Source of the DNA: Bugula neritina
Lineage: Eukaryota > Animalia > Bryozoa
DNA: 64,000 bases
Direction of reading: 5' to 3'
Assembly (NCBI GenBank): GCA_964035545.1
Contig: OZ037767.1
Location: 5,534,707-5,598,706 of the forward strand
Shown: positions 15,401-18,400 of the stretch, in pieces
Position numbering within the stretch: the stretch's first letter is position 1
How the letters are laid out: each line of letters starts with the position of its first letter
Made by a program: the position numbers and the translations under genes
Notes under the pieces: generated by a model
What the model saw: the letters and a program-made list of their open reading frames with translations, nothing else
Told to the model about the DNA's origin: nothing
The model's database searches: none

Positions 15401-18400
15401 GAAATTGTCGTCTGAAGGGAGGCAGAAAGAGAGCAGGCTGCCCTTCTAGAACAGCTGGAACAGCAGCAAAGGCAGGAGTGGCAGCAACAGCAGCAGCAGG
15501 CCCCAGGGCCACCACCCCTCCCGGGGGAAGACACCCCCACTCGTGTTACGAGTGAAGGCGGGGACCCCCCTACTGTAGTAACTGAAGAGCCACTGGCACC
15601 ACCAGCGCCTGCACAGCCAGAAAGGAGCCAGAGAGCTAGGAAACCCCCCAGATATCTAGCGGACTATCACGTGGGACACATGGAGATGTCCCCACAGAGG
15701 AGTGGTGCACCCAGTGTAGTAATTTGTGTAACTACTATGCGTGGGTTCCTAGCTTGTAATTATAGTCTATTTATCTACACCAATAAAGTATTTAAGTAAG
15801 AGTTTCCAAAGTTTATTCACTACTAATTATATAAAAGATACAGCATGTACACATTTTAGAGATTACATCTTCGCTTAGTTAGCACGCTCTCTCTACTGCA
15901 AAACTACTACTAGCTGAGGGTTATCACGTGACGCACTCGGATAGGCTGAAGGAATACGGGGGACGCGCGTATTACGTCCTCACTACACCGCCCCCCCCAG
16001 CAGAAAGCCCTACTTTCTGATAACACAGATACAATAAATTCGAACATAAAATGTTATAAAACTGAAAAAAACCCGAGAGAGCGTGTGGCACATAAAAGAA
16101 AAACATGGCTATGTACAGCAATAAAAAAACATATACATATAAAAAAATATAACAGTAAATACACAATGGCACCGGCGGGAGGCACTTATAAAGGGATAGT
16201 TTGTAGAGGTAGCTGTATACTGGTAGGTTACTATATTGTTACACTGAGTAATTGTTTGTGAGCACCGGCGTGAGAAGGGTCTGGAATGGGGCACCACCTG
16301 CTGTACCATCACGGATAGAGAGAGGAGGGACATCATCTTCAAGCACTTCCTTTCATTCGGGCTACAGAGGCAGAGAGGGCCCGGAGTTCGGATGCGGCGG
16401 CGGAGATTCTCGGTGTCAGTCTTTGCACCTCTTTCTCTAATTCTCGTATCCGCTCTTCTGCCTCGCCTAGATTCCGGGCAGGGGCAGAGTGTCGGTTGGG
16501 GGATGAAGACGGCCAACGCCGTTTACGAGAAGGCCTTGGGGAGACAGGGGGGGAGGGACGCCATCGCTGTGGTATATCGATGCGTCGTAACACGACTCTT
16601 GGTATAGAGTCGGGGCGGGGCACTGTGCGTGCGGGGGGTGAGGGACGGGGTACGTGTGGTTTCCTATATCCGGGTGGTTTAGGGCAGGGTCCCTGTGTGA
16701 TGGTCCTGGGTGCGGGGAACTCCTGACGCAGCCGTTCATAGCGAGCTGGGTCTGATATGAACGGTCGGATGAGATTAAGGAATTGTGGAAAGGAGGGTTC
16801 GTCGACTTCGAACAGGTGTCCAACATGGCATCCCATAGTTCGCTGGTGACGGAGGATGTAGTCCCTGTGGTAACTATATTCACCACAGGGACAAAAGGTG
16901 GTGAAATAATGTTGGGGAATATGAACTCGAAGTCTTCGTGGAGTAGTGAAGTGAAGCTGGCATAAACGGCAGGTGGTGCATTGGTCGTCTCCCTTGTGCT
17001 CTCGTATCAGTGTTTCTGTATCTGGTGTAACCCAGCATGACTGCTGTAATAGTGCCTCCGGAAGAGTAGTGGGAACGGGTTCCTTGTTCCAAGCCATTTC
17101 TAGTGACGGCATGTCACCAGAGAGAGGAGAGAGAGCGGTATCTAAAAGAGCAGAATTACTGTTAGATCGAGTATGATCTTTACACCATAATTCTGATGAC
17201 AACCGACTGTTACTAGTCTGGGAGTCATACATCTTTTCAGATAGCACTCGAGGGACTGAGTCGTGTCGTGTAGACTGACAGAGAGACATAGTGTCAAGCT
17301 CCAGATCTAGTAGATCGTCGGCCATCTTTATGTTCTCGTCGCCTTTCACGTAGGACTCAGTCCCCAGTAGTTGTGATTCAATCAAGGCGATTAAATCAGA
17401 ACTGACTGATGGTAGACTGGTTTCCATGAGTGAAAATGTTAGCTCAGAGCAAGCTTACCTGAGAACCCGGTATTTGTAATCATACTCAGCGTTCAAGCTT
17501 GGATGTCCGTGGATTGAGTTTGAATGCGTCTTCCCTTGACAACGTCAGCGTACGAAAAGACTGGGCAGCGTGGTTGTTGCGCACAGCTGGAACTATTTGC
17601 CCCGGGCGTAGTAGTTTTGTTTACTACTCCGCCTTCGCAAAAGTTGAGATTTCCGTGGTGTTCACAACTCCCACGCTTTGTTGCCAGTCCTTCCGTACGG
17701 CGCCCAGCTAGACTTTCATAACTGCCGTTTGTAACACGGTCACATATGTAGTCTTTAAGGTATGCTGGGGGTTGTCTAGTACGCTGTCCCCGTTCCAGGG
17801 GAGGTGACGTATCAGCTGGAGAGGGAGTTGTAGCTGTTGGTTGGGGCGGCGTACTCACTGGTGGGCTATTTTGCTCCACCTGTGGTGTTTCTGGCCCGCC
17901 GTTGGTGGTGGTGTTCCCCTCTCCGCTGTTGTCTCCAGATGGAGCCCCTCCCACGGGGGGGGTTTTGCACTTCCGGATGCGGATGCGGAACCGGAAGTGG
18001 TGAGGGTAGACTTGGTACTGGGGGCGGTGGGCGCACTTCCGTTGGCGGGAGTGGCGTCTCCTGCCTCACCAAGTCCTCTCCCCGCGGCACAACCACTTCG
18101 TATTCTGGTCCATGCCGTTGCCGCCCGCGCGTTACTGTCTGCCTCCTGGGCTCCAACAACGGGGGGGCTGCTCCTGCTGCTCCTGGGCTAGCCCAATACG
18201 GTTTCAAGCGGGTTTCGTTCTGGACAGAGACCTGTCCAGATCGCTCCAACTTGTACGTATGATTGGGCATAGCCTCAACTACTACGTAGGGTCCCACAAA
18301 CTTAGGCTGGAGCTTAGCCGCTTGTCCCCGACGCCTACGGTAGTTGACCATCCACACCCAGTCCCCAGTTTGATAGAGGGGTGGTTCCTGAGAGTCCTCT

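Follow-up and report, generated by a model that had tools for sequence, protein, structure and literature searches.

A conserved, non-envelope accessory gene encoding a putative zinc-finger protein downstream of pol in a Gypsy retrotransposon of Bugula neritina

The window analysed here is a 64,000-nt stretch of the genome of the bryozoan Bugula neritina (GCA_964035545.1, contig OZ037767.1, positions 5,534,707 to 5,598,706). On its minus strand, a Ty3/Gypsy long terminal repeat (LTR) retrotransposon at 15715–23274 carries a third open reading frame (ORF), ORF3 (16339..17427, minus strand), which is recognized by its stop-free translation, its homologues and a bias towards synonymous variation. 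The sequence evidence indicates that ORF3 belongs to a real, conserved and unannotated family of accessory genes that do not encode an envelope. No description of this family was found in the literature; Repbase, Dfam and GyDB lay outside that search, and annotation in a database only is possible.

A first-pass annotation, made from the letters of the window alone, had described an intact 362-codon sense ORF between integrase and the polypurine tract (PPT). This was borne out, as 16339–17427 is free of stops on the minus strand and encodes a protein of 362 amino acids (aa). ORF3 has the same sense as gag-pol and lies between pol and the PPT, inside the LTR pair; its start lies 65 nt beyond the stop codon that closes the integrase-tail frame, and 351 nt separate its end from the 3' LTR. 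The spacer between pol and ORF3 contains a splice-donor-like sequence, CAGGTAAG (17454..17461, minus strand), which is the sole match to the donor pattern within the element and sits 27–34 nt upstream of the ORF3 ATG. Downstream of CAGGTAAG, a branch-like CTAAC and a stretch of pyrimidines precede this ATG. No second ORF3 was found within the window; the neighbouring Gypsy copies end at the integrase tail, and are therefore uninformative on its presence or absence.

The ORF3 gene family and evidence of selection

A search of 5.8 billion proteins yielded 74 homologues (71 from JGI, two from ENA and one from Logan), none of them named and all without taxon labels. Identity to ORF3 is 51–78% in 73 of the 74, the remaining one being a frameshifted, near-identical copy. 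Thirteen full-length proteins, ORF3 itself included, are 355–383 aa long, with pairwise identities of 52–87%. When the finger domain (aa 114–245) was used as the query, 182 representatives, counted at 50% clustering, were recovered at E <=0.001, with identity down to ~30%.

Conservation is concentrated in discrete blocks. The two fingers are 79–80% identical, the basic patch 76% and the coil 66%, compared with 29–39% for the two linkers. In an alignment of 19 sequences, chosen for length and 19–65% identical to ORF3, the residues W132, C153, C156, H169, H173, C179, C181, R188, H194, Q195 and D209 are invariant, and include seven zinc ligands. Most of these sequences share a layout in which the finger domain is followed by a Pro/basic linker and a C-terminal helix, and the acidic N-terminal patch described below is also present in both close and far groups of relatives. 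One homologue (P0093) has two tandem copies of the finger domain ahead of a single coiled coil. A domain tree of 23 rows, in which supported forks were few and branches long, was used only for the grouping of five close rows (96/94).

Pfam has no family for ORF3 above cut-off. When 75 of 143 homologues were scanned, 68 gave no match, three matched Gypsy pol domains, two gave weak C2H2 matches and two gave spurious ones. Two candidate homologues, P0141 and P0163, were discarded because their best finger-domain scores were 4.9 and 8.9 bits, as was a viral contig match (L001; 27% identity, E 9e-5) in which the finger cysteines are missing.

Variation within ORF3 points to constraint on the protein. 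Synonymous changes account for 27 of the 38 best-supported variant rows (there are 223 further rows), against an expected 25–29%, and 25 of the 38 fall at third codon positions. The ratio of non-synonymous to synonymous rates (dN/dS, omega) estimated from these 38 rows is ~0.15 (0.13–0.17). This is a rough figure and no proper dN/dS, because the rows were selected and many come from the same few contigs, which weighs against a firm functional reading. As judged from these variants, ORF3 is under purifying selection. The first-pass annotation had also taken it as evidence of function that ORF3 stays open whilst gag-pol of the same copy is broken. That argument fails: at the lesion density of gag-pol only 0.6 lesions are expected in 1089 nt, so that ORF3 would escape by chance with a probability of 0.55, and its openness is uninformative. 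The family is abundant in all three public runs that were considered (one organism label, one study), although depth does not equal copy number.

Domain structure of ORF3

ORF3 does not resemble an envelope protein. Its highest 19-residue hydropathy is 0.93, which leaves no signal or transmembrane (TM) segment, and the corresponding maxima in 21 of 21 proteins of the family are 0.50–0.96, none of them TM-like. The absence of a TM segment argues that ORF3 is not Env, in agreement with what had been read from the sequence at first pass. With respect to viral fusion proteins there was no Pfam match and no significant fold match, the coil giving only generic long-helix matches.

In the AlphaFold model of the full protein, the first 110 residues and the linker at 244–317 are mostly unstructured, and a helix is predicted at 318–360. 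Within the N-terminal part, an acidic-hydrophobic patch, DDLLDLELD (aa 37–45; 17293..17319, minus strand), lies in a block (35–60) that is 70% identical, and is a candidate activation domain. The folded domain at aa 114–245 (16693..17088, minus strand) is predicted to consist of a Trp-helix, two zinc fingers and two C-terminal helices. A basic patch, PSRKRR (16516..16533, minus strand), falls in the conserved block at 299–305 and is a candidate nuclear localization signal (NLS). The C-terminal segment, aa 317–360 (16348..16479, minus strand), is a predicted coiled coil with hydrophobic residues at 12 of 12 heptad a/d positions; oligomerization through it is predicted from the heptad pattern and a monomer model. 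These motifs, together with PRVVL (see below), were all found at the positions first assigned to them, and the coiled-coil-like segment, the canonical finger and the atypical second finger were likewise upheld.

Finger 1 (C153-x2-C156-x12-H169-x3-H173; 16909..16971, minus strand) fits the classical C2H2 ligand pattern C-x2-C-x12-H-x3-H and weakly matches fingers of SALL3/4 (E 3e-4); its four ligands are retained in 66/67, 64/67, 63/66 and 65/66 homologues. Finger 2 (C179-x-C181-x12-H194-x5-C200; 16828..16893, minus strand) is atypical, and its last ligand is His in several far relatives. Folded on its own, with 63 sequences as input, the domain gave a best model with a predicted local distance difference test score (pLDDT) of 90 and a predicted template modelling score of 0.81, the pLDDT of the five models ranging over 56–90. 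Residues 30–90 of the model superpose on the DNA-bound tandem C2H2 pairs of Kaiso, SALL4, ZBTB20 and CTCF (Z 3.3–3.4, root mean square deviation 2.5–2.9 A, 50–57 residues). Neighbours of ORF3 in the ESM Atlas fall in unnamed and C2H2 clusters and serve as leads only.

Several features weigh against regarding this domain as an ordinary pair of DNA-binding fingers. Classical tandem C2H2 fingers are joined by a TGEKP-type linker, usually of seven residues. The ORF3 pair does not conform to a canonical tandem, since finger 2 reads C-x-C-x12-H-x5-C/H and the linker is YFTTF, of five residues as against the usual seven; in addition, extra helices pack against the fingers in the model. A VIA search with the domain model gave no Z of 5 or more, and a Foldseek search of PDB and BFVD gave no match at E 0.001 (best E 0.16), an absence that does not prove a new fold. 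The fold search with the full-length model returned generic helix matches only. DNA binding by the finger pair is likely by analogy with tandem C2H2 fingers; because finger 2 is atypical and the linker short, it is rated as a prediction only.

The HP1-box-like motif

The disordered linker (pLDDT under 50 at 258–293) contains an HP1-box-like motif centred on V278 (16576..16614, minus strand), with a PRVVL core at 16588–16602. The first-pass annotation had read this as PxVxL, the HP1 chromoshadow-binding motif, and its conservation and context uphold part of that claim. PxVxL is retained in 38 of 45 close homologues, and the frequency of the commonest residue in 35 sequences is 0.80–1.00 at 276–283, compared with 0.23–0.83 at 257–267 and 0.40–0.77 at 288–298. 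The KAP1 HP1 box is P486-R487-V488-S489-L490-E491-R492 (PMC12126490, as far as its available text goes), and the PRVVL region shares with it the P, R, V, L and +4 R. The copy in the window also satisfies the full extended Drosophila HP1 signature as given in the accessible part of PMC12526061, which 3% of shuffles do. A relaxed form of this signature (hydrophobic at -2, V/I at 0, aliphatic at +2, basic at +4 and no excluded residues) is present in the host copy, in 33 of 43 close homologues and in 5 of 14 mid-distance homologues checked. Of 9 mid-distance homologues, 7 contain [PL]xVx[LIVM]; shuffles average 1.5 and reach at most 6. LxVxL is a described HP1-binding variant, and HP1 tolerates the P-to-L change (PMC7465937).

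A number of observations nevertheless tell against HP1 as the partner. The bare PxVxL motif turns up in 16% of shuffles of the ORF3 protein, and the bare HP1 motif is stated, in the portion of PMC12526061 consulted, to match about half of the Drosophila proteome. The strict signature, which adds 3–6 basic residues between -4 and +4, is found in the host copy but in only one of 43 close homologues. Amongst homologues with intact tails, exact PxVxL occurs in 24 of 25 close, 0 of 9 mid-distance and 3 of 17 far sequences, P at -2 being absent from all nine of the mid-distance group. Of 17 far homologues, 8 contain [PL]xVx[LIVM] (shuffles average 3.0, with a maximum of 8), and by eye the motif resembles PVLRI/PLRV, so that what is conserved may be a strand that engages a different partner. 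On these sequence patterns, binding of HP1 by ORF3 is possible but doubtful; that the motif is a conserved docking site for a host protein of some kind has the higher probability.

The host element and conservation of the post-pol slot

The element that carries ORF3 is assigned to Ty3/Gypsy, with an LTR pair ending in TG..CA, a primer-binding site (PBS), a PPT and a target duplication all present. A Pfam scan gives the domain order protease, reverse transcriptase (RT), RNase H, integrase, as in Gypsy. The LTRs are 273 bp each and differ at a single position, and CTGG, a 4-bp target duplication, stands on both flanks; this copy is a young element. From 5' to 3' on the minus strand, it comprises the 5' LTR (23002..23274; TGTAGT..ACTACA), the PBS immediately 3' of it (22983..23000), which we take to be of the tRNA-Leu type, gag and the start of protease (21609..22946; Asp_protease_2, E 2e-4), the remaining protease region in a shifted frame closed by an in-frame stop (21226..21684), pol with RT, RNase H and integrase (H2C2, rve and SH3_Tf2-1) (17866..21225), the integrase C-terminal tail in a shifted frame (17493..18065), ORF3, the PPT, a G run adjoining the 3' LTR (15988..15998), and the 3' LTR (15715..15987). 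There was no Pfam match to a chromodomain in pol. The three gag-pol lesions counted at first pass were located as a frameshift in the protease region (21609–21684), a stop at 21226–21228 and a frameshift near 17955. The Gag zinc knuckle (22140–22181, minus strand) has lost all three Cys despite LTRs only 1/273 apart, unlike a sister Gypsy element at 7221 (plus strand), in which the CCHC knuckle is intact.

In the host copy, the position of ORF3 between integrase and the 3' LTR is directly visible. A near-identical contig (17355–17531) spans the pol tail to the start of ORF3, and another, ~88% alike (17267–17505), runs from ORF3 through the spacer to the pol stop. On the other side, P0076, which belongs to the same cluster as a 61%-identical homologue, has a frameshift at its end, and its tail reads through beyond ORF3; this tail aligns to the 3' untranslated region, PPT and LTR start of the host element (E 5e-7; 0 of 500 shuffles). 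Gypsy sequence also lies upstream of the finger domain, in the same ORF, in 7 of 144 distant homologues; a single cluster accounts for two of the seven. In P0193 this is an integrase alignment to gag-pol of the host element with 50% identity over 278 aa, in P0162, P0301 and P0227 a protease alignment, and in P0193, P0198, P0200 and P0230 an integrase-tail motif, a pattern devised within this analysis. In addition, two contigs of >6 kb, with sizes of 8298 and 9093, occur in both the ORF3 and the Gag match lists (73 of 20000 jittered controls), a hint that ORF3 and Gag may share contigs. Taken together, the alignments indicate that the slot is conserved across the family.

In P0162, P0301 and P0227, protease is joined to the ORF3 domain with no match to RT, RNase H or integrase. 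From their sequences, these are possibly internally deleted, non-autonomous elements that retain ORF3. The DNA loci of homologues gave no match amongst metagenome or genome contigs, and a weak search of 7984 candidates found no long ORF3 fusions. Pro-rich low-complexity matches between homologues and the upstream region were disregarded.

Proposed function and alternative explanations

The first-pass annotation had proposed an element-encoded chromatin regulator. What stands of this is a non-envelope zinc-finger protein in the env slot under apparent purifying selection; the argument from its staying open does not. We tentatively suggest that ORF3 may be a nuclear regulator that binds element DNA in oligomeric form and alters the chromatin of the element in favour of expression, a reading that we regard as a real prospect, if short of probable. 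ORF3 would be made from a spliced or subgenomic RNA, as suggested by other ORF3s (PMC5408684, in the text available) and the nearby donor-like site, and its KRR patch would direct it to the nucleus. There the zinc-finger pair would bind the element's own DNA, the predicted coiled coil would oligomerize the protein and PRVVL would provide the contact to a chromatin protein of the host, the HP1 chromoshadow dimer being the likeliest, such that the acidic patch and the docking motif together could shift the chromatin of the element towards expression. Activation or anti-silencing is the favoured direction of the effect, because the acidic-hydrophobic N-terminal patch recurs even in far relatives.

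Alternatively, ORF3 could act on RNA in the manner of Rev or CERV, its fingers binding unspliced element RNA, its coil forming oligomers and the protein exporting or stabilizing genomic RNA. Some C2H2 proteins bind RNA, and the splice-donor-like site ahead of the ORF3 ATG would suit such a role. There is also a precedent in CERV of Cer1, a nuclear Gypsy accessory protein required for export of genomic RNA. According to the accessible text, CERV carries a possible leucine zipper, KRKK as an NLS candidate and a loop rich in Cys (PMC10309623); ORF3 likewise possesses fingers along with a coil and a basic patch. However, CERV has gag-overlapping exons and M and G domains (PMC10309623, same portion), neither of which is seen in ORF3, the fold matches of ORF3 are mostly to DNA-bound fingers, and the HP1-box-like island is left unexplained; this alternative is rather unlikely, though the strongest of those weighed against a DNA-binding regulator. 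Less likely still, in our estimation, would be a role in integration targeting, with ORF3 bridging the integration complex to HP1-marked heterochromatin. The hexapeptide of Ty5 integrase, which acts via Sir4, is a precedent for targeting (PMC7459421, as partly available), pol lacks a chromodomain match, four distant relatives have the ORF and the integrase tail in a common frame, and the host copy adjoins another Gypsy remnant in a retroelement cluster. Yet ORF3 is a separate ORF in the host lineage, the weak search found no long fusions, the in-frame cases may be gene-caller read-throughs, a single nested insertion says little, and the acidic patch is not accounted for.

A DNA-binding finger domain joined to an HP1 box is also the layout of a repressor, and ORF3 might bring HP1 to its own LTRs and so cap copy number, like the KRAB-ZFP/KAP1 pair; the KAP1 box drives silencing of endogenous retroviruses (PMC12126490, in the part seen). 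Such self-limitation is improbable, given that the family appears high-copy in three of three runs, with the proviso on depth given above, and that the conserved acidic patch would fit activation better than repression. The loss of all three knuckle Cys in Gag of the host copy, which the sister element at 7221 keeps, could instead suggest that ORF3 substitutes for the nucleocapsid knuckle as a particle protein and aids RNA packaging. Against this, a knuckle was detected with our own pattern in 9 of 64 Gag homologues, with three Cys in seven and two in two, and one of those with three (P0255) has a longest contig equal in size to that of an ORF3 homologue; C2H2 fingers and an NLS-like patch are also ill-suited to a particle, and the idea is very unlikely. 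Finally, ORF3 could be a piece of a host gene that a single copy has captured, or else a neutral ORF, and it is true that direct views of the slot come from few relatives. The depth of the family, the synonymous bias and the Gypsy-linked distant relatives speak against both, and a convincing host-gene domain was found in none of the 75 homologues scanned, the two that carry such domains scoring <9 bits on the finger domain. Capture is thus unlikely on family, slot and Pfam evidence, and we give this last explanation almost no weight.

Comparison with known systems

Other retroelements place extra ORFs after pol, and ORF3 resembles several of them in part. The bdelloid Vesta, Juno and TelKA elements have non-envelope ORF3s of GDSL, DEDDy, coiled-coil and TM types, which, like the present ORF3, are family-specific, in sense orientation, post-pol and non-Env. 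They are enzymes, TM or coiled-coil proteins, and 'zinc' is not mentioned in the available part of the source (PMC5408684), whereas ORF3 unites a coil with two zinc fingers and an HP1-box-like motif. CERV and ORF3 are both Gypsy accessory proteins that have a zipper or coil, a basic stretch as candidate NLS and an element rich in Cys, but CERV is built from gag-shared exons with H, M and G domains and a C4-type loop and has a demonstrated function in RNA export (PMC10309623, as before). ORF3 is instead a free post-pol ORF with His-containing fingers, its model shows the finger domain and coil only, and its role is putative. The additional ORFs of plant Grande (gene23), RIRE2, Retand and PvRetro13 are, like ORF3, family-wide and situated between pol and the 3' LTR; some plant additional ORFs are nuclear and have been proposed to act like retroviral accessory factors. 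Unlike ORF3, these ORFs are antisense, or sense and env-like with a TM segment, and a zinc-finger pair is not described in the portion of the source consulted (PMC7264820).

With the KAP1/TRIM28 box and the HP1a access code of Drosophila, ORF3 has in common the P-R-V-x-L-x-R core, a hydrophobic residue at +5 and a conserved island in a disordered linker (PMC12126490 and PMC12526061, in their accessible parts). The KAP1 and HP1a ligands are host proteins, however, and in most ORF3 homologues the core is flanked by two basic residues instead of at least three. VANC of Arabidopsis is likewise transposon-encoded, and is proposed to relieve silencing in a sequence-specific manner (PMC12859917, as far as available); it comes from plant DNA transposons and no match to it in sequence or domains was found for ORF3; the likeness is in logic only. 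The integrase targeting domain of Ty5 is a short retroelement motif for a heterochromatin protein, as is predicted in ORF3, but it forms part of a yeast integrase (PMC7459421), whereas ORF3 is a gene in its own right and possesses a finger domain. Zinc fingers go unmentioned in the available text of a study surveying animal Gypsy elements that carry env (PMC13524379) and of an annelid LTR survey (PMC8220671), and env is the only third ORF described in that of PMC12992720.

Neighbourhood of the element

The window contains further Gypsy sequences. At 7000–11224 (plus strand) is a second element of the same lineage, with ~80% DNA identity in pol, which is broken and ends at the integrase tail. 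A different broken element, presumably Mag-like, with gag, protease and RT (11089–13309, minus strand), is truncated at the junction with it. A third remnant (13700–15714, plus strand), extending from the end of RNase H to the integrase tail, adjoins the 3' LTR of the ORF3-bearing element, the other flank of which is AT-rich DNA. The 4-bp target duplication is consistent with insertion beside this remnant, the pre-insertion site being only putative. Elsewhere in the window, an AT-rich segmental duplication of ~6 kb (184–6319 and 27542–33435) has a spacing of 27.3 kb and 90–98% identity, with weaker, older and more diverged copies at 35800–45600, and a tandem repeat with a 30-bp unit in about six copies lies at 52310–52532.

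Implications

Extra ORFs downstream of pol are known, but in animals there are few whose design plausibly points to the nucleus and to chromatin. The ORF3 family comprises at least 182 representatives, has no Pfam family and is tied to Gypsy pol in distant relatives. A wider interpretation, which is conceivable but for the present unlikely, is that a widespread and old animal Gypsy lineage makes a zinc-finger mimic of host silencing adaptors, with a KAP1-like HP1 box, that binds its own DNA. Held with the same reserve is its corollary, that HP1 would be engaged either to reverse silencing or to direct copies to heterochromatin, which would make ORF3 an animal counterpart of VANC. With a single protein, a single motif and a single LTR, ORF3 offers a small candidate system in which an LTR element of an animal could oppose H3K9me3/HP1 silencing or turn it to its own use.

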